Part shown: one piece after another, positions 10,794 to 37,133 of the stretch | Layout: each line of letters opens with the position of its first letter | Position numbering within the stretch: position 1 is the stretch's first letter | Assembly (NCBI GenBank): GCA_905209085.1 | Contig: CAJLRM010000001.1 | Span: forward strand, 328,289-392,288 | DNA length: 64,000 nt | DNA from: an uncultured Eubacteriales bacterium | GTDB taxonomy: Bacteria; Bacillota; Clostridia; Christensenellales; Borkfalkiaceae | Direction: 5' to 3' | Program-made: the position numbers and the translations under genes | The notes under the pieces: generated by a model | The model's database searches: none | What the model saw: only the letters and a program-made list of their open reading frames with translations | What the model was told of the DNA's origin: nothing

Positions 10794-10821
10794 TTGACAT
10801 CTATTTTTTTTATGGTATAAT
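10794..10821 (+). promoter_or_regulatory. Near-consensus sigma70 promoter: TTGACA, 16-nt spacer, TATAAT, driving the ArsR-like gene.
   Basis: TTGACA lies at 10794..10799 and TATAAT at 10816..10821. The RBS AGAGGTG sits 7 nt before the ATG at 10842. Confidence 0.55.
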
Positions 10822-10841: not shown

Positions 10842-11759
10842 ATGCTGAAAATTATACAGCTTACCTTAAAAGAAGAAAATTCTCTTTTGGAGATCGCGCG
10901 CGCCATCTCCTCTCCCAATCGGCTGGAAATCATCAAATCCTTGAATGTGAAGAGCATGAATATCAAGGAGTTAAGCGAACTTTTGAATCAGCCTATTTCT
11001 TCCACCTCCCTCAACGTGGATATTTTAGAAAGCTGCGGACTCATCAAGACGGAAATGCAGTTTTCGCAGCTCGGGCGTTCCCGCCTGTGCTCCCGCTGCT
11101 GCGACGGCATTTCGGTAGATCTGCAAAACGACGATACGGTGCGGGCGGACGAGATAAAAATTTCTCTCCCAATCGGTTCGTATTTCGACTGTCACGTTCG
11201 TCCCGATTGCGGGATTGCAACGGTCACGGGCAATCTCGGCGTAGATACGGAGAATAATTGTTTTTTCAAGCCCGAGCGTTACAAAGCGGAGCTTATCTGG
11301 TTCAGCAGTGGATATCTCGAATACCGAATCGCAAAAAACGAGATCCCGCCCAATGCGAAAAAAATGGAAATTTCTTTCGAAGCCTGTTCGGAAGCGCCCT
11401 TTTACCGCAATGATTTTAAGTCGGACATTACCCTTTGGGTCAACGATATAGAAATCGGCACTTATACTAGCCCCGGAGATTTCGGGGACAGGCGGGGTAG
11501 GCTGAATCCCGAATGGTGGCCCGATTCCATGACGCAATACGGTGTATTGGTCACCTGGAAAATCAACGATAAAGGCTGTATGCTGGGCGCGAACGAAATT
11601 AATTCCAAAACGTTCGCGGACATAAGGCAAAACGAAAAGGATTACCTTTCTATTAAAATCGGCATCAAAGATAATGCCAAATACAAGGGCGGGATCAATT
11701 TATTCGGAAAGAAATTCGGAGATCACAATCAGGATATTGCGGTAAAATTCAGTTGGTAG
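10842..11759 (+). CDS. ArsR/SmtB-family HTH transcriptional regulator with a ~200-aa C-terminal domain of unknown function.
   Basis: 305 aa. The N-terminus LEIARAISSPNRLEIIKSLNVKSMNIKELSELLNQPISSTSLNVDILESCGLIK is an ArsR-type winged helix. The C-terminal beta-rich domain is unrecognised. It is the first gene of the low-GC island and is convergent with the rhs array. Confidence 0.6.
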   Translation: MLKIIQLTLKEENSLLEIARAISSPNRLEIIKSLNVKSMNIKELSELLNQPISSTSLNVDILESCGLIKTEMQFSQLGRSRLCSRCCDGISVDLQNDDTVRADEIKISLPIGSYFDCHVRPDCGIATVTGNLGVDTENNCFFKPERYKAELIWFSSGYLEYRIAKNEIPPNAKKMEISFEACSEAPFYRNDFKSDITLWVNDIEIGTYTSPGDFGDRRGRLNPEWWPDSMTQYGVLVTWKINDKGCMLGANEINSKTFADIRQNEKDYLSIKIGIKDNAKYKGGINLFGKKFGDHNQDIAVKFSW

Positions 11760-11879: not shown

Positions 11880-12250
11880 AATTTTAGCTGTCGTAGCGGT
11901 ACGTCGCTATATTTCCGTATTTCGTCAGTGCTCTTCCCCGCTTCCATTCCAATACGTTTCCACGGTATTCTCCCGGGTTTCCCAATGCGTCGTAGCTGCC
12001 CGCGATACTCACTTCCCGACTCGTATTGTTCACCATGTCGTATTCCGTGATACTCACAAGACGGTTTTTGTTCCCGCTTGCATAATGGTAACTCTCCTTC
12101 TTCTCCTACGTCTTCGAACTATTTGCCTGCGTATACACGTCACCAAGGTTTCCGTCCGCGTCGTAGCTGTAATAGTGATTCTTCCCGATAAACCCGTTTT
12201 CTTCCGACACCAAACGATTGATATCGTCATAGTTGTATGTTACGCTCTTA
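11880..12250 (-). pseudogene. Isolated remnant of the Rhs core. It duplicates the segment encoding ...YTQANSSKTWEKKESYHYASGNKNRLVSITEYDMVNN... and has no start or C-terminus.
   Basis: ~90% nucleotide identity to 17215..17458 and 21765..22130 of the main rhs gene. The antisense ORF 12085..12279 mirrors the antisense ORF 21425..22204. Homology stops abruptly at both ends. Confidence 0.6.
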
Positions 12251-12252
12251 TA

Positions 12253-12296
12253 AAAAACAGAAACGACAGTTATTACTGACGTTTCTGTTTTTATTA
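12253..12296. terminator. Bidirectional intrinsic terminator closing the orphan array.
   Basis: AAAACAGAAACG-(14 nt)-CGTTTCTGTTTT, a perfect 12-bp stem flanked by A- and T-runs. Confidence 0.5.
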
Positions 12297-12332
12297 ATTT
12301 ATTTTCTCTGAATCTATATAAATTAATTTTAT

Positions 12333-12803
12333 TTATTTCTTTTCAATAAAATATAAATCAAGTTCTTTTAACCAATCTTGAATAGTTTTGTTAGTTAGTT
12401 CTCCTAAAAACAATGATTCATAAATGTCCTTTTCCCAATTATTATAAGTAACTTGACATAATACTTTTTTTTCTTTGCGATAAATTAATACAGCAATATG
12501 GTTATTCGAAAACACTAAATAATCAGAAAACCTATTTAAATCAAAGTTTTCAATATCTTTTAACATTTGACATTGATATTTATAATATTCTTTACCAATA
12601 TCAAGAAAATTTGTTTCTTTTATATTACAAATATGATATTTTAAATTATATCCTATTTCATAACGAAACGAATCTTGTTGTATAAAGTAATTATGATTTT
12701 TTATTATAATATTTAATCTTACATCATCTTCCGTAAAAAGATTATCAAAGGCCTTTTGAATCGTAAAATAAACATTTTGGGTCAATTTTAAAGATATCTT
12801 CAT
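12333..12803 (-). CDS. Putative immunity protein for the orphan toxin 12807..13982.
   Basis: 156 aa, low GC. It starts 3 nt after the toxin stop, has no signal peptide and no recognised domain. Position and size fit a polymorphic-toxin immunity gene. Confidence 0.5.
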   Translation of the reverse strand: MKISLKLTQNVYFTIQKAFDNLFTEDDVRLNIIIKNHNYFIQQDSFRYEIGYNLKYHICNIKETNFLDIGKEYYKYQCQMLKDIENFDLNRFSDYLVFSNNHIAVLIYRKEKKVLCQVTYNNWEKDIYESLFLGELTNKTIQDWLKELDLYFIEKK

Positions 12804-12806
12804 ATT

Positions 12807-13982
12807 TTACTTCCTAAATCTAAAATACTTTCTCGCGATATTTTTCATTTTCTCGGTCAAATCAGAAAATTTCCTAACATGACCATGATAAAGTGAAACT
12901 TCTTTTCCATCAATTATTTTAATCTGTGTTCTATCTAAAACTACTAATTGATCATTAGAAAAACCGACTCTTCTTGGAGAATCCGATGAAATTAAATAGG
13001 AATTATCCAAAGCAGCTTGCCCATCAATTGGCTTTGGACTTTTAACACTATTTCCTGTCGAAGTATGATATGGGGCATCTTCATACACGCCATGTTCATA
13101 AGTATAACAATTTTTATTATGAACGCAAACACCTGTTCCGACATAATAGGTATGGAAATCTTCTACTTCAAAGTTATACGTCGTCTGCGCATTATCGTAA
13201 TGCTTGCTTTTTACGCTTTCTATTATACCATATCTTCCGTCCCAAAGTAATACTTTATCTCCTTCTTTTAGTTCTTCCGCACTCCTCCATTCCTTCTTTT
13301 CGGGCAAATAATACTTATGTCCACTAGTACTTTCGATCTCTTCTCCGTTCACTTTCACGATTGTCCATTCTTTACTTTCGTTTCGGAAGAGTCTTACTAC
13401 TTCTTTATACGCCTGTTTCCCCGTTTCTTCGTCGTATGCGAGTACTTTATCTCCGACTTCTACCTCCTCGATATTCTTGTACCCGTCCTCCGTCTTTACT
13501 TTTGTTCCCGCTATAAAACATTTTCCTGGATTACATTCCCCGCCTTGGCTGTTCGGGAGTTTTTCTCCTGTCACCCTGTTCTGCGCCGACGTCCGCAGCG
13601 CTTTCTTCCCCGCTACCTTCAATGTCGCCTGCAACGCCTTGAACGCCTGCAATACCGCGATTGCCGACAACACCACGTCCACGACCGCAATCACCACAAA
13701 TAGCAGATTTAGCCAGCTTGGCTCCTTGATAAACGCACGCACCGCCTCTATCAGTCCGTATACCGCCAATCCTAAAAACACTAACGACACTACCAGCCCG
13801 ATAATCGCGCCGATTAAGTGCCCGCTCGGGTCCGCATGATTTACGGGATTATTCAGACAGTAGCTGTATAGATTCTGTCCCCCAATCGTCGTCAGGTATT
13901 CGCCTGATACTACCCCTACATTATCCGCATTGATAAAACGTCTTATCTCCGCGTCATAGTATCGACTCTGCAAATAATACAA
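12807..13982 (-). CDS. Orphan Rhs C-terminal cassette: Rhs core end (DPxGL), TM helix pair, Hint domain, then a ~100-aa toxin (possible HNH/EndoVII-fold nuclease).
   Basis: 391 aa. NPVNHADPSGHL is followed by IGAIIGLVVSLVFLGLAVYGL...VIAVVDVVLSAIAV. The Hint domain runs CFIAGTKVKTEDGYKNIEEVEVGDKVLAYDEETGKQAYKEV ... EDFHTYYVGTGVCVHNKNC. The toxin contains SLYHGHVRKF. The first codon is TTG (Leu in the main gene). In-frame Rhs-core homology continues up to ~14093 with no ATG or RBS. Confidence 0.7.
   Translation of the reverse strand: MYYLQSRYYDAEIRRFINADNVGVVSGEYLTTIGGQNLYSYCLNNPVNHADPSGHLIGAIIGLVVSLVFLGLAVYGLIEAVRAFIKEPSWLNLLFVVIAVVDVVLSAIAVLQAFKALQATLKVAGKKALRTSAQNRVTGEKLPNSQGGECNPGKCFIAGTKVKTEDGYKNIEEVEVGDKVLAYDEETGKQAYKEVVRLFRNESKEWTIVKVNGEEIESTSGHKYYLPEKKEWRSAEELKEGDKVLLWDGRYGIIESVKSKHYDNAQTTYNFEVEDFHTYYVGTGVCVHNKNCYTYEHGVYEDAPYHTSTGNSVKSPKPIDGQAALDNSYLISSDSPRRVGFSNDQLVVLDRTQIKIIDGKEVSLYHGHVRKFSDLTEKMKNIARKYFRFRK
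13385..13735. repeat. Copy 1 of a ~350-bp direct repeat encoding the TM-helix pair plus the Hint N-half.
   Basis: Near-identical to 15180..15530 and 19705..20060. The antisense ORFs 13317..13703, 15115..15501 and 19582..20001 share ...YYFFIRLFPRFFVVCEYFISDFYLLDILVPVLRLYFCSRYK.... Confidence 0.6.
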
Positions 13983-14190
13983 CTTCGTGTCTTCGTCGTA
14001 ATAATAGCCCTTATACCGGAACGGATTGACCCGACCTATATGACTATTATATAACTCTTTCTCCGTGATGTCAATACCCTCTTCGTTATATACAATAATA
14101 AATAAAAGTGTTGCAATATCATAAATATCACAACACTTTTACTTATTAAGTTTTCATTATATGATTTAATTATATTACTGAAGTGTTATT

Positions 14191-14589
14191 TTAATCTTTA
14201 ATTTCACTTAACTCAAAATCTACTGCACTTATCTCTAGAATATTATCTCTTAAGTCAACAATAAAATGTCTAGACTCTTTCATAAAGGATGCATCTTCAT
14301 CATTTTCTTTAAGTGCTTTTTTAAGTTGCATAATCCATTCTGAATTTTCCACCTCAAGAATATGCCTTTGATATATTCCCAACTCAAAGCTTTCTCTAAT
14401 AAGCAAAATATCTTTGTCAAAACAATCAGCCGTTGTTATTTTGAGTGCTTGATATGGTTTGAATACCATTCTATACCGATTTTCATTAACATCATCTAAC
14501 TCTATAACTATCACATTTTCCTCAATCGATATGTGTTCTAAAGGTACATTATTAATTATAAAAGATTTATTAATTATTTTTGCTTTCAT
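14191..14589 (-). CDS. Putative immunity protein for the orphan toxin 14593..15495.
   Basis: 132 aa, acidic, low GC. It starts 3 nt after the toxin stop. Confidence 0.5.
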   Translation of the reverse strand: MKAKIINKSFIINNVPLEHISIEENVIVIELDDVNENRYRMVFKPYQALKITTADCFDKDILLIRESFELGIYQRHILEVENSEWIMQLKKALKENDEDASFMKESRHFIVDLRDNILEISAVDFELSEIKD

Positions 14590-14592
14590 TTT

Positions 14593-15495
14593 TTACCTCA
14601 ATCTTATAGATCTTCCACCATTTATAGTTGTAAACTTCCAAGCCAGTTCTCGTACAATATTGGGTGCTGAAGGGTTTACCCACCTAACATTTATTTGACT
14701 CATACCAGCTTGCTTAAAAGCATAGAGCCTACGATTATCTAGAGTAAAAATTTTTCCGTCCTGTTCAAATACTCTTATAGCGGGAACATCATCTGCTGTA
14801 ATAGAACCATTTTTCAATCCAGTTATCATATCATCCACCGAACGTCCATCACTAAATTTGCGACCGATACTATCTTGTGTGTAATAAATATCATTTGGAT
14901 CAAGTTGGCAAGTATTATGAACCAATACGTCATTTTCGGTGACATAGTAAGTATGGAAGTCTTTTACTTCAAAGTTGTACTTCGTTTCCGCCTTTGCCAG
15001 CTCTTCTTTCTCTATCTTCTCTATCTTTACCTGGCTTCCGTCCGAAAGCGTCAATTTATCTTCTTCCGTTAAATCTTTCGCTTCTACGAATCCTTTTCCC
15101 TCTACATAAAACCGATGCCCTCCCGTACATACGATCTCTTCCCCTTCCACAAATACATGATACCATTCGTCCGTTTTTCCTCGGAAGAGCCTTATTACTT
15201 CTTTATACGCCTGTTTCCCCGTTTCTTCGTCGTATGCGAGTACTTTATCTCCGACTTCTACCTCCTCGATATTCTTGTACCCGTCCTCCGTCTTTACTTT
15301 TGTTCCCGCTATAAAACATTTTCCTGGATTACATTCCCCGCCTTGGCTGTTCGGGAGTTTTTCTCCTGTCACCCTGTTCTGCGCCGACGTCCGCAGCGCT
15401 TTCTTCCCCGCTACCTTCAATGTCGCCTGCAACGCCTTGAACGCCTGCAATACCGCGATTGCCGACAACACCACGTCCACTACCGCGATCACCAC
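14593..15495 (-). CDS. Orphan toxin cassette: TM helix, Hint domain, then a ~105-aa C-terminal toxin of unknown family.
   Basis: 300 aa. Begins MVIAVVDVVLSAIAVLQAFKALQATLKVAGKK with a GTG first codon and no SD. The Hint domain runs CFIAGTKV...DFHTYYVTENDVLVHNTC. The toxin is QLDPNDIYYTQDSIGRKFSDGRSVDDMITGL...FTLDNRRLYAFKQAG. Rhs-frame homology (GLIKAYRAFIKEPSWLNLLF) continues upstream to an in-frame stop at ~15559. Confidence 0.65.
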   Translation of the reverse strand: MVIAVVDVVLSAIAVLQAFKALQATLKVAGKKALRTSAQNRVTGEKLPNSQGGECNPGKCFIAGTKVKTEDGYKNIEEVEVGDKVLAYDEETGKQAYKEVIRLFRGKTDEWYHVFVEGEEIVCTGGHRFYVEGKGFVEAKDLTEEDKLTLSDGSQVKIEKIEKEELAKAETKYNFEVKDFHTYYVTENDVLVHNTCQLDPNDIYYTQDSIGRKFSDGRSVDDMITGLKNGSITADDVPAIRVFEQDGKIFTLDNRRLYAFKQAGMSQINVRWVNPSAPNIVRELAWKFTTINGGRSIRLR

Positions 15496-15530
15496 AAATA
15501 GCAGATTTAGCCAGCTCGGCTCCTTGATAA
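15180..15530. repeat. Copy 2 of the TM/Hint-N direct repeat.
   Basis: See 13385..13735. Confidence 0.6.
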
Positions 15531-15595
15531 ACGCCCTGTAAGCTTTAATTAGCCCAACTTAAAGACTAAATTTAAATTTTTCATTCAAATCAGCC

Positions 15596-15636
15596 AAATC
15601 AAGCGCTGTCATTTCTATTTGACAGCGCTTGATTTT
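15596..15636. terminator. Perfect 14-bp hairpin inside a conserved ~110-bp inter-cassette element (copy 1).
   Basis: ATCAAGCGCTGTCA-TTTCTATTT-TGACAGCGCTTGAT with flanking A/T runs. The whole 15541..15650 element is ~95% identical to 20070..20181. Confidence 0.5.
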
Positions 15637-15650
15637 AAACTCATTCCTCT

Positions 15651-16025
15651 TCAATCAAGATCTTTACAATAGTGGTCATTTAAATCAACAATAGCGCTAC
15701 CCACTTCATTGATTCTGTCCCAAACATTTTCATTCCTTTTTCTCTCCAATAAAGAAAGACATGGCCAACTATCTATAACTAAAGAAAGTGAACTTAACCT
15801 TCTTCTATCTCTTTTTTGTGGAAAATTATCTTCACTTATTTGATTTAACAACTTATTCATTTCAGGAAGCATAAAGTCTTTCACTTCCTTAATTAAGGAA
15901 TTAATATTCCATATTTCTATTGTTTTTTTTGTATGTTTATCAAGTGAATTAAAATAACTTAAAAGTCTTTCTAATTTATTCTTTGTATCAATAACTGCAT
16001 CTTGAAAATTTTGTAATGTATACAT
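15651..16025 (-). CDS. Immunity protein, diverged paralog of 20182..20562, cognate to the orphan toxin 16055..17446.
   Basis: 124 aa. The C-terminal ~30 aa (WPCLSLLERKRNENVWDRINEVGSAIVDLNDHYCKDLD) is almost identical to the C-terminus of the main immunity protein, whereas the N-terminal 90 aa are only ~45% identical. Confidence 0.6.
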   Translation of the reverse strand: MYTLQNFQDAVIDTKNKLERLLSYFNSLDKHTKKTIEIWNINSLIKEVKDFMLPEMNKLLNQISEDNFPQKRDRRRLSSLSLVIDSWPCLSLLERKRNENVWDRINEVGSAIVDLNDHYCKDLD

Positions 16026-16054
16026 CTCCTATCCTCCATCAAAATAATTTTTAT

Positions 16055-17446
16055 TTATAATAACGACTCTAAATTCCAAATATAGAATTGATAGCCACCC
16101 CCTATTTGTCCATTTAAAGGTACTACTTTTCCCTCTATTAACAATGTCCCCTTCTTCAATATAAATTGTGTCATATGCTCAGCCGAATTTGTCGTTGTGT
16201 CCAAAGCCAATGCAGAAATAGGATTACTATATTGATATGGAGTTATCCAATATCCTTTTGGATTGCTTCCACTATAATATCGATAAACTATTATATCTCT
16301 TTTTGCTATGCTTACTGTCGCGTCATCACCAAATCCTTTTAATACTTGTTCATGATACTGTTTTGGCACATATTTGTCAAGATATTCTTGAACAGACATA
16401 TTCACTTTTTGTGTAGAAGAAGTTTTAATAAACTTTTTAGCTTTCGTCACTTTTACAGCAGCCAATAAACCTTTAAAGGCTTTCCATACTGCTATCAATG
16501 ACAAAGCCACGTCTACTACTGCTATTACCAAAAATAGCAAATTCAACCAACTTGGTTCTTTCCAAAACGCTTGACCCGCTTTTATCAGTCCGTATACCGC
16601 CAATCCTAAAAACACTAACGACACTACCAGACCGACAATCGCGCCGATTAAATGCCCGCTCGGGTCCGCATGATTTACGGGATTATTCAGACAGTAGCTA
16701 TATAGATTCTGTCCCCCGAGCGTCGTCAGGTATTCGCCTGATACTACCCCTACGTTATCCGCATTGATAAAACGTCTTATCTCCGCGTCATAGTATCGAC
16801 TCTGCAAGTAGTACAACTTCGTGTCTTCGTCGTAATAATAGCCCTTATATCGGAACGGATTGACCCGACCTATATGACTATTATACATCGTATTCTCTGT
16901 AATGTCAATACCCTCTTCGTTATAGACCCGGCATTTTCCCCACGCGTCGTATTCATATCTCGCCGCGATGCTTCCGTCTTCCTTACATACTCTTACGATA
17001 TTCCCGCTCGTTCCGTATTGGTAATAGTATCTCCCGCTTTCGCTCGTCAGTCCGATGACCTTCTCTCCCGCGTACAGATAGCGATAGTACTTCGTTTCGC
17101 TTCCCTTCGTGATCCGCTCTCCGACTATCTTCCCGCCTACCGTATAATACTGATGCGTCCGTCCGCCTTCCTGCTTCTCCACTCGGATATTATTGCTGTC
17201 GTATCTGTACGTCGCTATGTTCCCGTACTTCGTCAGCACCCTTCCTCTCTTCCATTCCAATACGTTCCCACGGTATTCCCCAGGGTTTCCCAATGCGTCG
17301 TAGCTGCCCGCAATACTCACTTCTCGACTCGTATTGTTCACCATGTCGTATTCCGTGATACTCACAAGACGATTCTTGTTCCCGCTTGCGTAATGATAGC
17401 TTTCCTTCTTCTCCCACGTCTTCGAACTATTTGCCTGCGTATACAC
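16055..17446 (-). CDS. Orphan Rhs core end plus C-terminal toxin. It is a diverged allele of the toxin on the main rhs gene, with DPxGL, a TM pair, then a ~150-aa toxin.
   Basis: 463 aa. From the first codon GTG (Val in the main gene) through ...NPVNHADPSGHLIGAIVGLVVSLVFLGL..KFIKTSSTQKV it is >95% nucleotide-identical to the main gene. The last ~100 codons are only ~70% identical. There is no ATG or RBS. Rhs-frame homology ends 7 codons upstream of the GTG. Confidence 0.7.
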   Translation of the reverse strand: MYTQANSSKTWEKKESYHYASGNKNRLVSITEYDMVNNTSREVSIAGSYDALGNPGEYRGNVLEWKRGRVLTKYGNIATYRYDSNNIRVEKQEGGRTHQYYTVGGKIVGERITKGSETKYYRYLYAGEKVIGLTSESGRYYYQYGTSGNIVRVCKEDGSIAARYEYDAWGKCRVYNEEGIDITENTMYNSHIGRVNPFRYKGYYYDEDTKLYYLQSRYYDAEIRRFINADNVGVVSGEYLTTLGGQNLYSYCLNNPVNHADPSGHLIGAIVGLVVSLVFLGLAVYGLIKAGQAFWKEPSWLNLLFLVIAVVDVALSLIAVWKAFKGLLAAVKVTKAKKFIKTSSTQKVNMSVQEYLDKYVPKQYHEQVLKGFGDDATVSIAKRDIIVYRYYSGSNPKGYWITPYQYSNPISALALDTTTNSAEHMTQFILKKGTLLIEGKVVPLNGQIGGGYQFYIWNLESLL

Positions 17447-17458
17447 GTCCCCAAGGTT
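16300..17458. repeat. ~1.15-kb direct repeat of the Rhs core 3' end (copy in the orphan).
   Basis: >95% identical to 20850..22010. The antisense ORFs 16874..17527 and 21425..22204 are identical for 175 aa. Confidence 0.65.
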
Positions 17459-17506
17459 TCCGTCCGTGTCAATGAATCATATATTAAAAAATGTCACATA
17501 AAAAAT

Positions 17507-17543
17507 AAAAACAGGCTTGTAATATAATTTCAAGCCTGTTTTT
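17507..17543. terminator. Bidirectional intrinsic terminator.
   Basis: AAAAACAGGCTTG-TAATATAATTT-CAAGCCTGTTTTT, a perfect 13-bp stem with T-runs on both strands. It sits between the immunity gene 17644..18144 and the next orphan. Confidence 0.55.
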
Positions 17544-17643
17544 ATGTAAATATTACAAAAATCGCCTTTTATCCAATTTACGCAATAGCCATTTTTATTA
17601 CAAAGAACGCTTTATAATATACTTTACAATAAACAAAAATACT

Positions 17644-26600: not shown

Positions 26601-27055
26601 CAAAGAAGCCGCTTATCCCGTTTGCCGAGCAGCTTCCATTCCACCTTATATCCGTCTTTTTCCAGCGTAAACAGCTTTCCGTTCGTCCGTTTGCCGAATT
26701 TTACCCGAACGTCGCTCTGCCTGTTTTCATAGCCGTCGAAATCGTCTTCTTTTTCAAGGCACGCCGGACAATCGCAAAGAGTATTGTCTATGGCGAGATA
26801 TTTTCCCTCCGTTTCGTCGTAATAGTGCACGGGCTCGGTGAAAATCTGCGCCCGATAGCTGCCGTCGCTCATTCTGAAATGCTTTACGTTCTCCTCGCGC
26901 TTCGCCTCGTCCTCAAAGAGCACGATAGGCGCGTCTTTATTTTTCTTTAAAGCTACTTCGTCGTATACCTGCCCCTCCGATTCTTCAAGAATTTCCTCGG
27001 AAGCAAGTTCTTCGTTTACGTTTTCTTCCATGTTTTTAAATTTAATGGTTCCCAT
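20603..27055 (-). CDS. rhs: RHS-repeat polymorphic toxin, 2150 aa. It has an N-terminal domain without a signal peptide, a DNRLRE-like domain, a CBM-like insert, YD/RHS repeats, an Rhs core ending in DPxGL, a TM helix pair and a ~150-aa C-terminal toxin.
   Basis: - Multiple YD repeats and core hallmarks are present: YDAWG, YYLQSRYYDAEIRRFINAD, NPVNHADPSGHL.
- C-terminal to DPSGHL come two hydrophobic helices and the toxin (...VYRYYGNNNPIGHWVTPNQY...).
- The ATG at 27055 has an AAGGAAAAA RBS.
- GC declines from ~48% at the 5' end to ~33% at the 3' end. Confidence 0.9.
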   Translation of the reverse strand: MGTIKFKNMEENVNEELASEEILEESEGQVYDEVALKKNKDAPIVLFEDEAKREENVKHFRMSDGSYRAQIFTEPVHYYDETEGKYLAIDNTLCDCPACLEKEDDFDGYENRQSDVRVKFGKRTNGKLFTLEKDGYKVEWKLLGKRDKRLLCDALNDSCAFLPNGKQRSAETKLSDEIRYNDIAPGTDLQYILSPKRIKENIIVRERQDSYEYKFELKLKNLNVELSEDGQRLELFIQKIDEESGALGKETIFTIPMPYMFDADGKKSGEVTYELERLSGNKFIFSVIADENWINAEGRAFPVTIDPVIETKQKWDSNFCLSRKVTNQKNNKGEYIIDDSGYNCVGDDGYGMFRSYLKFKLPNFEGRKILEATLSLYQIGFDGNVNNPGYFDIHKVTSNWNENTTFKWDNCPSFDNKIYSRVRYSTKKYNTLKIDITKLAKEWENNPNYGLMMKDSFEQQYCDFFSFHNEKTAEDDSEIPQLTINYVENRCRVSDEYQVNNIKRAGTHMVDLWTGRNRLVHEDAGFEDNERLSLSVSHVYNILDKAASYIKTSRNNYTPDLGVGRGWKLNLQQFLFKINTAANGYTDSIGFLYIDQNGDEIVFSESKKWKAVYDGAGNVTDVVYATEYLDEQGKKLRCFETDGELRIKDDKETTLYFRNNELYKIIDRNGDYILLEKGACDGKISKVSDSTGHWATFAYNSLCCLNKITFSDGKVFSYTYDSFGRLTKIGYPDGSESEFHYGEGADSYSLTSVRDCSGYRLKIGYTNGKATSLKDFASNKEISAAGVTAYTAGDGGVSSYSTYKGVVYEKEGKEIVIKYENNTTKVITENGYADNYQWSDSGFCECIYQTKNELNASANKKYVTDVSKYKNFNLFDTYEVRPLALAKNFLKNGSFEGLSDCLEWVPVDETSANRYYGVSVDGNYSLKIQSSYTQKRQLCQTVYASQLKLSKGEGLLLSGYAKADSLPTSGANTSNGTTQDKYSTFSLLAKLIYTDGTSETTEVNFDPFKTDWQFAVKGIVVNDPSKLQRIEVYIDYSYNNGAAYFDRISLTKGNAVYTKGLPRFYTNRDMKTYDISELVGIEYKDNDHIFHKYESVSVKDRKKNYLDILAMQQNPDLIIIDGEVHDGGAEPKRTMLTFKKEGESEKKYSLFDIEYAASGITEIVNKSGRIRLYKRRDDNVERTEFISDDKASFAMESEYDASGRLIKETDFRGVVKEYTYSNASKYNNVTKEKTHYANGVNKTLIHRQSYTNNEYIRNTYDERGYDEDGSELYTTTNYNASSENLSSVKLPNGQTVQYSYDKTNTYLLGITTSVSVRSTPGGSVRTQTVGVNYSYNLGYLTSIDTGANGVNYEYAYDGFGNALKTYVNGEEVVAVKSYKDSTYSSTDESTYDYEEVVLGNGTAIKEIYNKKGGLICRKIKTQTGTVNGEAVYGEEVESYRVYYKTDEHGEELDEIDQTIDKMPAIDLGTPTDAKKWYYHRYNYKENGEFDYSTLSSSEGGVEYRSELDEGGRVIKEKYTLSGLSLNHSYQYEYEKNGEGEVIPDNRIKEIRMYDKAEGTSAVDTLTLKYDELGRLTKEGLKPETSSSAEYFYESYGYKNRLGKNSCNCTYQEGSTNYLSTIQYRCKNVYGTESADYDKNGNIKKITDANKSVTYSYDDINRLVSEENGFIGKNHYYSYDADGNLGDVYTQANSSKTWEKKESYHYASGNKNRLVSITEYDMVNNTSREVSIAGSYDALGNPGEYRGNVLEWKRGRVLTKYGNIATYRYDSNNIRVEKQEGGRTHQYYTVGGKIVGERITKGSETKYYRYLYAGEKVIGLTSESGRYYYQYGTSGNIVRVCKEDGSIAARYEYDAWGKCRVYNEEGIDITENTMYNSHIGRVNPFRYKGYYYDEDTKLYYLQSRYYDAEIRRFINADNVGIVSSEYLTTIGGQNLYSYCLNNPVNHADPSGHLIGAIIGLVVSLVFLGLAVYGLIKAGQAFWKEPSWLNLLFLVIAVVDVALSLIAVWKAFKGLLAAVKVTKAKKFIKTSSTQKVDMSVQEYLDKYVPKQYHEEVLKGFGDDAVVSMAQKDIKVYRYYGNNNPIGHWVTPNQYANPISALALDSTQNSAEHMATYILKKGTLLIEGKVIPLNGQLGGGYQYYIAILKNALI
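20850..22010. repeat. ~1.15-kb direct repeat of the Rhs core 3' end (copy in the main gene).
   Basis: See 16300..17458. Confidence 0.65.
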
Positions 27056-27073: not shown

Positions 27074-28135
27074 TTAATTGTTTTTTAATTTGATTTCCAG
27101 TATCTGCGGCTTATCATAATTGTCGCCCGTAGATACCGCGCTGACGCCTTTTTCCTGCCCGCTCTTTATGACGAACCCGGAATTTCGCGGCTCATGCAGT
27201 CTTAAAATATCCCGTAGGATCTCGCTCACATCCATCCTTTCATAGCGGCGGCTGCGCCTCGCCGTATACAACAAGCGGGAAAAAGCGGTCTTCGTGTTCC
27301 AAGTCGACGCGAAACTGCACCAAGGCGCGTCCATTTTATAGCCGTCCAGCCTGCATTCTCCCCCCCATTTCGGCAAATACAACGTCGCTTCTTTGACCCG
27401 ATAAAAATTCAGATCGGCGAAAAGCGTTGTGTCGAAACGCGAATACAGCCATTGTTCCCCGTATTCTTCGGTATTTCCCAAAAATGCGGCGCCGCCGAAC
27501 GCATTATTTTCGTCGGGAAGTTTCGACGCTACCGTGGTATCGAGCACCAGTTTCGGCGCGTACAGAGCGATCTCGAAAAGAATTTCTGTCGCCGCGGCGC
27601 TTTCCACCGTCATTTCAAAGGCTTTTTCTCCCCTCTTCACCCCGTTTACCCGCAGCGGACAAACGCCGCCGCCCGTTTTCCCTATTATCCCGTTCACGCT
27701 CAAAAATGGAGTAAACTCCTCCCGCATCAGCGCGAAACACCCCGCGCTTTCCCGAACGGTTCTTTCCGAACTCGTTTCCAGCGAAAATTTCGTCTTGCTT
27801 TTACCGCAGACGACCGCGATTCCGTTAAACGTCGGCTCTATCGATACGTCGTCCGCAAACGCAATCTCGGCGCTGCCGTAATCGTTGCAAAGGATGACGT
27901 TTTCCTCTGTGGCGGCAATTTCGGCATTGATTCCCTGAAAACGATAGCGCCCGTTTTCTTTCCGCCATTTCGGCAACAGGAGCTTCCCTTCTTTCGAATA
28001 TACGGGCACGCTGCAATAATACGCCGTGATCCCGTCCTCTTCCTTTACGAGCACCCGATAGGGATTCGTGTTTCTCTTTTCTATTTTTAAATTTTCCTCA
28101 CCGCGAATGCGGCGGATCTCCCTTAAAATGTCCAT
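27074..28135 (-). CDS. Hypothetical cytoplasmic protein, paralogous to residues ~50-480 of the downstream Rhs protein, including its DNRLRE-like domain.
   Basis: 353 aa. EDGITAYYCSVPVYSKEGKLLL resembles Rhs SDGSYRAQIFTEPVHYYDETEGKYLAI. WLYSRFDTTLFADLNFYRVKEATLYLPKW resembles Rhs GMFRSYLKFKLPNFEGRKILEATLSLYQ. Its stop lies 18 nt before the rhs ATG. Confidence 0.5.
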   Translation of the reverse strand: MDILREIRRIRGEENLKIEKRNTNPYRVLVKEEDGITAYYCSVPVYSKEGKLLLPKWRKENGRYRFQGINAEIAATEENVILCNDYGSAEIAFADDVSIEPTFNGIAVVCGKSKTKFSLETSSERTVRESAGCFALMREEFTPFLSVNGIIGKTGGGVCPLRVNGVKRGEKAFEMTVESAAATEILFEIALYAPKLVLDTTVASKLPDENNAFGGAAFLGNTEEYGEQWLYSRFDTTLFADLNFYRVKEATLYLPKWGGECRLDGYKMDAPWCSFASTWNTKTAFSRLLYTARRSRRYERMDVSEILRDILRLHEPRNSGFVIKSGQEKGVSAVSTGDNYDKPQILEIKLKNN

Positions 28136-28148
28136 ATTCTTCTCACGC

Positions 28149-28715
28149 TTATCGGCCGTCTTCCCCTTCCAAAGTCAAAGCGACGATGTGCATCAACATA
28201 TTGTCGGGAAAAACAATCTCCCGCACCCGCTCTTGTTTTTCGAGGCTGCAAACGCAGTGATGAAAATAGAAAGGGTGCTTCACCGCGCCCGAGGAGAGAA
28301 AAATTTTCGCGGTACGGACGGCGCTGTACTGAAACATAAAATGCGTGAAAATATCCGCATCCCAGCCATGCGACCAATCGGGCACGGCAACGCGCACCGT
28401 TTCTTCGCCGCCGTCCCCGCAGACGACGGTGAAATTTTCGCAGGTATCTCCCCAATGCGAAAATCCGATAAAATGCAGTTTTTTCGCTTCCGCATCCGCT
28501 TTTACTCTCTGCCTGTCGCACAAGACGTTGTCGAAATTTGAATCCGCGAATCGAAATTCCACCCCGTCGATCGTTTCCTCGCCCCGCAGAGAAAAATTCG
28601 CCTGTAAAATGCAGATATTTTCCAGTCCGTACTCCTCCTCGGTCGGGGGCAGGGAAGCGTACACCAATTTGTGATTGAGCCACGGCGAAAGATCGACCCT
28701 TTCAAATCTTTTCAT
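28149..28715 (-). CDS. Hypothetical 189-aa protein (MKRFERVDLSPWLNHKLVY...), translationally coupled to the upstream BtrH-like gene.
   Basis: The internal ATG at 28715 overlaps the upstream TGA as ATGA. The N-terminal 146 codons of the long ORF 28149..29153 overlap that upstream gene, so the internal start is taken. It is Cys/His/Trp-rich (FIGFSHWGDTCENFTVVCGDGGEE) with no recognised family. Confidence 0.5.
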   Translation of the reverse strand: MKRFERVDLSPWLNHKLVYASLPPTEEEYGLENICILQANFSLRGEETIDGVEFRFADSNFDNVLCDRQRVKADAEAKKLHFIGFSHWGDTCENFTVVCGDGGEETVRVAVPDWSHGWDADIFTHFMFQYSAVRTAKIFLSSGAVKHPFYFHHCVCSLEKQERVREIVFPDNMLMHIVALTLEGEDGR

Positions 28716-29650
28716 GCGCACGCCTCCCACAGACAGTCGTAGACTTTCTCTTCCGTTTCCTTTACGGAATCTATCTTTCTCAGAATTCCGTCCCTCCGCG
28801 TGACGGCGAAAGAAAAATTTTCCTGACGCCACATTTTCCACAGCAGGGAAAGGAGATTCGAATAGCCGCTTATCAGAAAGTCCAGCAGGGCGCTCTTTTC
28901 TTTGCTCTGCGAAAACGCCCGCGTTTCGGAAAGACAATAGAGGGAGGTTCTCATGCTTTGCAGATAATCCGTTATCTTCTCCGATTTTTCTTGCAGTTCT
29001 TTTAGGTCGGAAAGAAACATTCTTTTCAGTTCGCCAAGATTCTTTTCCGAGCTTTTTCTCGACGAAAGCAGCCTGTTCAAATCCATTTGCGACCATAGAC
29101 CGAGGGCACCTTTTTGAACTTTCGCCTTGCGTAAAACGCGGCAGGAAAACCACTTTTCGGGATGACGCTTCCGATACATCCCGTTTGCATACAAGAGATT
29201 ATCCAGAGAAATTACTTTCTCCCGAAATTCGTAACTTCCCCTGTAAGCGTGATCCACCACGTTCGCTTCCCGCGTTTTCAGATCGTAGCCGTAACAAAGG
29301 AGAAAGTGCAGTTCATGCCGTATGCCGAACATTTCGGGGCGGCTTTCGAGATAAAAGCAGTCCACCCCGACGATGACCGGCATTCCCTTATCGATCCGCC
29401 TCTTCAACGCTCTCTTAGAGATATTGCGCGATTTGCAGCGATAGCCCGCCGTCCTTTCAAACTCCCGCGCGCCAAGAATCCCCCCTTCGTCCGCCGAAAA
29501 TCCTTCTTTGGCAAAGACCATTGCGTTTAAAAGGAAGAGTTCCCGATCGACGCCTAAGGCGGACAGTCCCGCGATTAACTGATGATAATAGCAGCTTTTC
29601 AGCCAAAATTTGTTGAACGGTTTTACGCCCTCTATTTTATTTTTTATCAT
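28712..29650 (-). CDS. Papain-like / BtrH-N-like Cys-His enzyme, a putative ACP-dependent acyl- or peptidyl-transferase (paralog 2).
   Basis: 312 aa. It has an N-terminal Cys in FWLKSCYYHQLIAGL and a His in RHELHFLLCYGYDL. The same Cys...His spacing occurs in the paralog 31353..32168. The C-terminal half is a helical K/E-rich region. The 5' end overlaps the stop of ACP-1 by 14 nt. Confidence 0.45.
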   Translation of the reverse strand: MIKNKIEGVKPFNKFWLKSCYYHQLIAGLSALGVDRELFLLNAMVFAKEGFSADEGGILGAREFERTAGYRCKSRNISKRALKRRIDKGMPVIVGVDCFYLESRPEMFGIRHELHFLLCYGYDLKTREANVVDHAYRGSYEFREKVISLDNLLYANGMYRKRHPEKWFSCRVLRKAKVQKGALGLWSQMDLNRLLSSRKSSEKNLGELKRMFLSDLKELQEKSEKITDYLQSMRTSLYCLSETRAFSQSKEKSALLDFLISGYSNLLSLLWKMWRQENFSFAVTRRDGILRKIDSVKETEEKVYDCLWEACA

Positions 29651-36578: not shown

Positions 36579-36608
36579 CCGAACATATGTTCGGATTTTA
36601 TTTTATTA
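36579..36608. promoter_or_regulatory. Perfect 12+12 palindrome, a candidate operator or terminator.
   Basis: AAAATCCGAACA-TA-TGTTCGGATTTT, immediately 5' of the zinc-ribbon ORF. Confidence 0.35.
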
Positions 36609-37133
36609 TACTTCCTTTTTTTTACAATGTCAAGCGAATACGCCCTATCGTTTTGTGAAAATTTCTTCTTGTCTTTTCAATGGAATCGGACTGTCCGAAA
36701 AGAGCCGTAACTATTTTTTTCTCCTGGACAGGATAGTTTTTTCTCAGCCTTCTTACAACCGTTCTTTTTCTGACAAGAAACTTTTTAAAAGGGCAAGACA
36801 AAATTTTCCGCTTTCTATTTTCTATTTTTAGTAAGGAAACGCCGCCGCTTTGTTCTTCGTCGAATTTTTCAAAAATCGATAAAACCTTCGTTCTTTTTGG
36901 ATTTTTCGCTATTTATTCTCGTTCCACGGGAAACGAGAATAAAATTTATAGATTTTCAGCGGAAATTTTTTAGCTTCCGGCAAATAAACTCCCGGATTCT
37001 CTTCCTTTTCCATCCTCCTTGGATAGGCGGAACGGAAGCGGCAATTCCTTGGAAAGAAAAATCCGAGGGCTTCAAATAATACGCGCTCCCCGGATTTTCC
37101 TATTAATAAAGGCTACGGGCTTCCCTACGCGAT

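Follow-up and report, generated by a model that had tools for sequence, protein, structure and literature searches.

Displaced toxin cassettes behind a full-length rhs gene in a human-gut Bacillota, and a predicted promoter embedded in two of them

Orphan rhs genes of Salmonella can be activated by recombination (PMC3967940), and a cassette-recombination model has been described for polymorphic toxins (PMC3482391). In Salmonella Typhimurium, an internal promoter (P2) is located in the 3' end of the core of both main and orphan rhs genes; it was mapped by 5' rapid amplification of cDNA ends (5'-RACE) and was active in all conditions tested, and the C-terminal regions of the main and orphan genes have been reported as a type II toxin-antitoxin-like module (PMC7043789). 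Here we describe an Rhs polymorphic-toxin locus of a human-gut Bacillota, which occupies 11.9-27 kb of a 64-kb window of GCA_905209085.1 (contig CAJLRM010000001.1), the window being the whole stretch of DNA that we analysed. One full-length rhs gene, presumably expressed, is followed on its 3' side by an array of displaced 3' cassettes, comprising five 5'-truncated toxin cassettes, which we denote A to E, and one core remnant. In each cassette, an rhs fragment truncated at its 5' end is combined with a toxin, an immunity gene and a terminator. All genes of the locus are on the minus strand and are listed 5' to 3' (Table 1).

The locus matches the established orphan model for Rhs and contact-dependent inhibition (CDI) systems (PMC3150448, PMC3967940, PMC3482391). 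The explanation that we prefer, and that we hold to be likely, is that the orphans are displaced, untranslated toxin cassettes that are recruited by recombination, with C and E being transcribed from an internal promoter for the sake of immunity.

Translation starts and cassette boundaries

An earlier, sequence-only reading of this DNA had assigned the main rhs gene an ATG at 27055 with a ribosome-binding site, and had noted that the orphans open on TTG at 13982 and on GTG at 15495, 17446 and 20031, with no Shine-Dalgarno (SD) sequence before them. All of this was borne out. The open reading frames (ORFs) called mechanically on the minus strand span 12807-13982 (TTG), 14593-15495 (GTG), 16055-17446 (GTG), 19129-20031 (GTG) and 20603-27055 (ATG). 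Taking the energy of the duplex with the anti-SD sequence as the measure of SD strength, we found that the main rhs gene has a site of -6.2 kcal/mol, from AAAGGAAAAA, and that the six small downstream genes all start with ATG behind GGAGG/GAGG-type sites of -5.5 to -10.5 kcal/mol. The corresponding values at the mechanical starts of the orphans are -1.8 (13982), -3.4 (15495), -5.7 (17446) and -2.6 (20031) kcal/mol, and none of these starts is preceded by a GGAGG-like core at the proper spacing. Altogether, a non-ATG, SD-less start is found in 5/5 orphans, and an ATG with an SD in 7/7 bona fide genes of the locus. In-frame ATGs do occur inside the orphans. When every in-frame ATG, GTG and TTG was scanned, no credible SD-bearing site was found upstream of a toxin domain, and a scan for non-canonical internal starts (CTG, ATT, ATC and ATA) returned none that was convincing. 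Because they have no translation-initiation site, the toxin parts of C, D and E are not independent genes; their immunity genes are ordinary genes.

The sequence-only reading had also proposed that homology in the Rhs frame continues above each orphan start until it meets an in-frame stop. An rhs-like frame does continue above each of the three starts concerned; the position of the stop needs a small correction for E. In C, the homology extends to 17470 (22021 in the main gene), 8 codons above the GTG, and an in-frame TGA is found at 17479-17477. In D, the frame runs on for 21 codons to 15558, directly under an in-frame TAA at 15561-15559. In E, DNA homology to the main gene reaches 14093 (main 21478), 37 codons above the mechanical start, and the first in-frame stop is met only about 15 codons further upstream. 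Nor does the homologous frame consist of Rhs core in every case: C contains a complete match to Rhs_assc_core (TIGR03696) and E a partial one (model positions 13-76), whereas D contains none. The codons upstream of the D start, and those upstream of the start of the orphan at 19129 (A), belong to the transmembrane (TM) pre-toxin segment that follows the PVNHADPSGH core end. On their 5' sides, C, D and E each adjoin the terminator hairpin of the preceding cassette.

These observations have a practical consequence. Public gene callers list the orphans as proteins of 300, 388 and 463 amino acids (aa), and the warning already made, that calling them as independent toxin genes is likely to be wrong, was apt. 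The predicted "proteins" of 300 to 463 aa are fragments and need a flag that marks them as rhs C-terminal cassettes; the small genes downstream of them are genuine. Three near-identical antisense ORFs on the plus strand (13317-13703, 15115-15501 and 19582-20001; 128-139 aa) mirror the repeated coding sequence of the TM segment and the HINT domain, and in two metagenome contigs (L004 and L013) the gene caller has chosen such an antisense ORF in place of the orphan.

Probable exchange between main and orphan positions

The cassettes differ in how much sequence they share with the resident main gene. C aligns with main 22021 to 20630 over 1392 nt at 92.7% identity, and the alignment is a mosaic in which perfectly identical tracts of 524, 168 and 53 nt are set between diverged stretches, which indicates ongoing exchange between the two. 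For main and C, the ratio of nonsynonymous to synonymous substitutions (dN/dS) is 0.05 for the core, where dS is 0.11, and 0.17 for the toxin, where dS is 0.93. These low ratios argue that C is a functional allele and not a decaying copy. E aligns with main 21478 to 21051 over 428 nt, of which 88% are identical, and the longest uninterrupted match is 74 nt. Neither D nor A has DNA homology to the main gene that BLAST detects; across the TM segment, 71 of 106 nt (67%) of D are identical to main, in runs of 8 nt or fewer. D and A are 85-97% identical to E over 360-600 nt of TM and HINT sequence.

It follows that the cassettes would be unequal in recruitability. C appears ready, as it could be recruited immediately through the 524-nt identical tract, and E should be recruitable through its 428 nt at 88% identity. 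The homology of D is too low for simple homologous recombination to link it with the resident main gene, and D is predicted to be stranded here unless a HINT-type main gene is present or D moves to another strain. Orphan B (18165-18842) starts within the PT-HINT domain (model positions 21-137), without the Cys block at the N-terminus of that domain; its sole route to recruitment would be the HINT homology that it shares with another cassette of the HINT type. Part of the array also exists in duplicate, with 15181-17470 and 19717-22021 forming a 2.3-kb segmental duplication of 89% identity, each copy of which extends from a core 3' end through toxin, immunity gene and terminator and takes in the first 380 nt of the HINT-type orphan that follows. 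Because the truncated 5' junctions of D and A both fall within this duplication, they represent one shared, older event.

Variants of the locus were found by exact-sequence look-up of three of the immunity proteins, which returned contigs with the same flanking genes and different cassette arrays. The exact 132-aa immunity protein occurs in 92 collection blocks and the exact 156-aa protein in 151, and human-gut metagenomes are the source of all the near-identical contigs. The toxin of C occupies the main position in six contigs, which derive from different samples: L003/L100, L096, L097 (GCA_027494455.1), L099 (GCA_041334705.1), L103 and L104. Each of these has a full-length rhs gene of 2149-2153 aa followed directly by the 124-aa immunity gene, and the last 100 residues of the Rhs protein match those of orphan C at 100/100 positions, as against 72/99 for the toxin of the window's own main gene. 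L003 equals the window minus the 4551-bp segment from 22021 to 17470. L099 is reciprocal to the window: the window's main toxin (100/100) is found there in a 464-aa orphan behind the 166-aa gene, with the mechanical start "VYTQANSS" that C has in the window. The window's main toxin is likewise in orphan position in L007. D is found behind a core in L006, where the rhs core and D share one open frame of at least 1321 aa, followed by the 132-aa gene; this fusion is 96.6% identical to the main protein and 99.4% identical, at the amino acid level, over the 320 residues of D. D comes with a 426-nt core fragment in L002 and L091, where a protein of 420 aa is predicted for it. Two contigs bear on the terminal core stump. 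The core fragment of C has recombined with the stump in L096, with C, D and E deleted, and in L012 the stump fragment (the equivalent of 11881-12249) runs into a complete C-type cassette.

Comparison of the contigs places the same toxin alleles in main position in some strains and in orphan position in others, which makes this locus a clear natural-variation record of toxin switching, in both directions, in a human-gut Firmicute. We infer that the switching would proceed by homologous recombination in the core or in the pre-toxin segment. The proposal that the orphans are stored alleles, put to use once recombined into the main gene, is thus supported by natural variants of three kinds (main rhs with the toxin of C, the core with D, and the reciprocal L099), and the search for strains in which an orphan toxin has replaced the main one was answered by the six contigs for C and by L006 for D. 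In molecular terms, RecA-type recombination would take place between the 3' core or pre-toxin segment of the main gene and its counterpart in a cassette, either within one genome or after uptake of DNA from a sibling strain, and the delivery part of the protein would thereby come to be followed by the stored toxin and the immunity gene that belongs to it.

A rival explanation, which we regard as unlikely, is that the toxin fragments are leftovers of past C-terminal displacement, that maintenance is confined to the immunity genes, which would form an array of acquired defence, and that the recombinant arrangements are ancestral. Some of the cassettes do look like relics: B is truncated inside its HINT domain, the core homology of D is gone, and the core stump persists. 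E is disrupted in two strains, by a nonsense codon in L003 (10497-11783) and by a 289-nt internal deletion in L006 (4467-5564), and the 156-aa immunity gene is 100% conserved in both, so that the toxin part can evidently be lost in orphan position. The arrangement with C in the main gene is moreover commoner than that of the window, so C may be recently displaced. Against decay of this kind stands the state of C, D and E, none of which is cut short in its toxin domain and which are 99-100% identical to the versions in main genes. The perfectly identical tracts shared by main and C, and the occurrence of one toxin as main in some strains and as orphan in others, in both directions, likewise speak for continued exchange over mere persistence.

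Two further observations were made on the variant contigs. A 7.7-kb block, consisting of E, the 156-aa immunity gene, C, the 124-aa immunity gene and genes of 303, 212, 167 and 942 aa, is repeated in the contig L012/L102 (ERZ28563987 scaffold_3682); the repeat may be a true tandem duplication of large size or an artefact of assembling the repeats. Another strain, represented by L002 (1831-8331), has this rhs core joined to a C-terminal TNT (tuberculosis necrotizing toxin-like NADase) domain, with an immunity gene of 87 aa; the window has no such cassette.

A predicted promoter inside the core

The main gene, C and E each contain the sequence TTGACA-17-TATAAT, a 12/12 match to the sigma-70/sigmaA consensus, within the coding sequence of the core 3' end (Table 1). 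D does not. The orphans had been described as promoter-less; this does not stand for C and E. Perfect sites are rare in this DNA: five were found in 128 kb (the 64-kb window, both strands), and the two outside the rhs sequences (TTGACA-N16/17-TATAAT) are intergenic and lie just upstream of genes. When the 17-kb sense strand was dinucleotide-shuffled 1000 times, at least one perfect site appeared in 0.7% of the shuffles (P=0.007). Both hexamers are invariant in 60 copies representing 13 distinct sequence contexts, and the spacer (ENTM vs EKEL codons) and the flanks vary. Since C and E carry this perfect internal promoter, they are probably not transcriptionally silent.

The position of the promoter relative to the cassette ends is also informative. 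At three independent orphan junctions, homology begins 8-14 nt upstream of the -35 hexamer (14 nt at the E junction), and the unrelated DNA on the upstream side consists of the terminators of the 132-aa, 87-aa and 120-aa immunity genes. The third of these junctions came from L094, one of only five extra contigs that a pattern scan of metagenomes for the promoter returned. A strong hairpin with a U tract follows every immunity gene (z -3.1 to -7.9). Given the internal promoter at one end and the hairpin after each immunity gene at the other, the C and E cassettes look like promoter-to-terminator units. A second, 11/12 promoter-like sequence is present in C and in the main gene at the border between the conserved and variable toxin parts, and immediately downstream of it the identity between main and C drops from about 100% to about 70%.

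We also considered whether such a promoter is general to the core ends of Firmicute Rhs genes, and rejected this idea. Scores of at least 11 were reached in 3/32 core-end windows and in 6/109 windows from upstream core, and the 11/12 matches in distant Rhs genes sit in a different conserved motif, LDxNG..V.KY. As there is no enrichment at distant Rhs core ends, and distant Firmicute Rhs genes lack the site, the promoter appears to be lineage-specific.

In cassettes of the C and E type, the internal promoter would transcribe the whole unit, so that the immunity gene could be made independently of the main operon; this step is read from sequence. The likely role would be to keep orphan immunity on as protection against siblings that deploy the toxin in question, with the toxin part of the transcript translated barely or not at all. 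The embedded promoter and the coincident 5' ends of the cassettes suggest that expression of orphan immunity may be built into the cassette itself. A stronger version is that the cassettes are autonomous transcription units, with a fixed 5' end 8-14 nt upstream of a coding-embedded sigmaA promoter and a terminator of their own. The orphans would then be constitutively transcribed for immunity, possibly with a low level of toxin, and the core stub would be both an expression signal and a recombination handle, a Gram-positive and independently evolved counterpart of P2. We put this version forward tentatively, as something that may be true but on which we would not quite lay an even wager.

The same promoter could be read in another way: transcripts from it might be translated from a weak or non-canonical start, giving a toxin in the cytoplasm that would pair with its immunity protein much as in a type II toxin-antitoxin module. 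The perfect site in main, C and E, the intact orphan frames under purifying selection and the Salmonella precedent of expression from P2 and a CTG start (PMC7043789) all lend this some appeal. Translation is where it falters. From the predicted transcription start to any toxin domain, there is no ATG, GTG or TTG that has a usable SD, and the sole conserved candidate, a GGAG followed after 10 nt by ATC, is a weak one: it is present in all three promoter copies, 105 nt after the predicted transcription start, but consists of an ATC at long spacing. The product would start inside the core or the TM segment, and D has no such promoter at all. The loss of E in two strains that kept its immunity gene, moreover, fits a toxin that is dispensable, not addictive. 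We judge a toxin-antitoxin-like role to be improbable, more so than that of the relics discussed above. That the orphans are real independent genes, translated from the GTG and TTG codons at which public callers open their long frames, we dismiss almost entirely, because these codons have no SD and are merely the first permitted ones after a junction stop, the rhs-homologous frame extends upstream of each of them, and the products would have no export or delivery part.

Several points weigh against the preferred explanation, in which untranslated cassettes are recruited by recombination and C and E are transcribed for immunity. The variants are short-read metagenome assemblies of a repeat-rich locus, and some of the joins could be chimeric; the fusion of the core to D rests on one 5.8-kb contig (L006) and L012 looks tandem, whereas the arrangement with C in the main gene is replicated many times. 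The comparisons do not reveal the direction of change, that is, whether a given difference arose by insertion and displacement or by deletion and activation. As for the promoter, both it and the terminators are known solely as matches to a consensus, promoter-like sites are not enriched at this position in distant Rhs genes, and conserved YD-repeat motifs can yield accidental 11/12 matches. Finally, D and the orphan at 19129 (A) have no comparable promoter, which leaves the expression of their immunity genes unexplained.

Table 1. Coordinates of the rhs locus features and of consensus promoter and terminator sequences in the window
Feature	Position	Strand	Remarks
Main rhs	27055 to 20603	-	2150 aa; ATG and SD
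Small gene, presumed immunity gene of main toxin	20562 to 20182	-	126 aa; ATG and GGAGG SD, -10.5 kcal/mol; paralogue of the 124-aa gene
Orphan A	about 20094 to 19129	-	PT-HINT; mechanical ORF 19129-20031 from GTG
Small ORF	19117 to 18914	-	67 aa
Orphan B	18836 to 18165	-	Opens inside HINT domain
Small gene (immunity)	18144 to 17644	-	166 aa
Orphan C	17470 to 16055	-	272 codons of core 3' end, TM segment, toxin allele related to main toxin; no start or SD
Immunity gene of C	16025 to 15651	-	124 aa; ATG and GGAGG SD, -9.5 kcal/mol
Orphan D	15558 to 14593	-	Partial TM pre-toxin segment, PT-HINT, toxin; no core fragment, start, SD or consensus promoter
Immunity gene of D	14589 to 14191	-	132 aa; ATG and GAGG SD, -7.5 kcal/mol
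Orphan E	14093 to 12807	-	92 codons of core 3' end, TM segment, PT-HINT, toxin; no start or SD
Immunity gene of E	12803 to 12333	-	156 aa; ATG and AGGAAG SD, -5.5 kcal/mol
Core stump (remnant of sixth cassette)	12249 to 11881	-	About 93% identical to main 22108 to 21740
Perfect TTGACA-17-TATAAT in main	21459 to 21431	-	Codons GIDITENTMYN; about 260 nt upstream of PxxxxDPxG
Perfect TTGACA-17-TATAAT in orphan C	16908 to 16880	-	Consensus scan
Perfect TTGACA-17-TATAAT in core fragment of orphan E	14074 to 14046	-	Predicted transcription start near 14039
11/12 promoter-like TTGACA-17-TATCAT in C	16380 to 16352	-	Border of conserved and variable toxin parts; twin in main, 20931 to 20903
Perfect site	10794-10821	+	Before ArsR-like ORF at 10842
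Perfect site	36605-36633	-	Before GGAGG/ATG gene starting about 36544
Terminator-like hairpin and U tract	17505-17545	-	After 166-aa immunity gene, upstream of C; z=-4.4
Terminator-like hairpin	15596-15635	-	After C immunity gene, upstream of D; z=-6.8; twin at 20127-20166
Terminator-like hairpin and U tract	14096-14148	-	After D immunity gene, abuts 5' end of orphan E; z=-6.5
Terminator-like hairpin and U tract	12253-12292	-	After E immunity gene; z=-7.9

The locus in its setting and among known systems

The main protein is composed of RHS/YD repeats (Pfam RHS_repeat PF05593, E=1.3e-24; TIGR01643 was also matched), with an Rhs_assc_core (TIGR03696, NCBIfam) at aa 1852-1951. The core ends in PVNHADPSGH, which is of the PxxxxDPxG[LH] type, and is followed by a two-helix hydrophobic TM pre-toxin segment and then by the toxin; the C-terminal regions after the core vary among strains. 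RHS_repeat is the sole Pfam match in the 2150-aa protein, and no PAAR, LXG or other trafficking domain was matched by Pfam. An exact look-up of the main protein found none on record. PT-HINT (PF07591) is present in A, B, D and E (E about 1e-25), above the gathering score in orphan E (91.5 bits, E=7e-26) and orphan D (91.3 bits, E=8e-26), and is absent from main and C. Neither the immunity proteins nor the toxin domains had a real match to a Pfam or PADLOC family, and a homologue search with the E toxin domain for full-length carriers gave five short matches only, which were uninformative.

The toxin and immunity modules (12300-20600) have a G+C content of 24-34%, compared with 45-50% in the rhs core and about 50-56% in the flanking metabolic genes (glycoside-hydrolase and glycyl-radical), a contrast that is consistent with horizontally circulating cassettes. 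A scan of GTDB genomes with the core 3' end as query returned no close isolate array; the closest relatives were metagenome-assembled genomes of Bacillota or Mollicutes, at 59% identity or less. An Rfam scan of 11.0-28.5 kb gave zero matches. The main rhs gene sits 19 nt 3' of a 353-aa ORF, and further upstream are a 186-aa ORF and a BtrH_N/peptidase-C39-like protein (27074-29650, minus strand).

The closest described counterparts are the Rhs orphans of enterobacteria (Poole 2011, PMC3150448; Koskiniemi 2014, PMC3967940). Those orphans, like the ones described here, are 5'-truncated fragments that lie 3' of a full-length gene in the same orientation, have no translation-initiation or export signals, and are each accompanied by a cognate immunity gene. 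Homologous recombination with the main gene, at the conserved 3' end of its core, brings the enterobacterial orphans into play, and would do so here as well. The present locus differs in that it belongs to a gut Bacillota of Gram-positive type and has no PAAR, VgrG or type VI secretion system (T6SS) context that we could find; that the array consists of five cassettes and a stump; that a two-helix TM segment, with PT-HINT in most cassettes, is placed between the core end and the toxin and provides extra recombination substrates; and that D and the orphans at 19129 and 18165 are truncated beyond the core and have no usable homology to the resident main gene.

The predicted promoter invites comparison with P2 of Salmonella (Starsta 2020, PMC7043789), as both lie inside the core 3' end upstream of PxxxxDPxG, in main gene and orphans alike, and by analogy the site described here could transcribe toxin and immunity gene independently of the full-length gene. 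The predicted site is a perfect consensus. It is situated about 20 codons 5' of YYDxxTxLYY, the motif in which P2 is found, and for this reason we consider the resemblance to be analogous, not homologous; a sequence scan found no counterpart of the CTG start and its ribosome-binding site.

The order of toxin and immunity gene, the arrays of cassettes 3' of a constant gene body, the combination of RHS repeats with a HINT peptidase in Firmicutes and the diversification by recombination at the 3' tip are all features of polymorphic toxin loci as catalogued by Zhang et al. 2012 (PMC3482391). Promoters internal to the cassettes and fixed cassette 5' ends are not described in that catalogue of architectures. 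The locus also resembles the orphan immunity arrays, or acquired defences, of gut bacteria (PMC12247911, PMC5361080), which are built by sequential displacement and keep immunity genes that have no active cognate toxin, presumably against siblings. Those arrays are tied to T6SS in Bacteroidales or Vibrio, whereas here the toxin fragments are mostly intact beside their immunity genes. The phenomenon as such is well known for Rhs, CdiA and other polymorphic toxins; to these the present locus adds a gut-Firmicute member with TM and PT-HINT modules, in which the embedded perfect promoter and the cassette boundaries that coincide with it are a modestly new detail.

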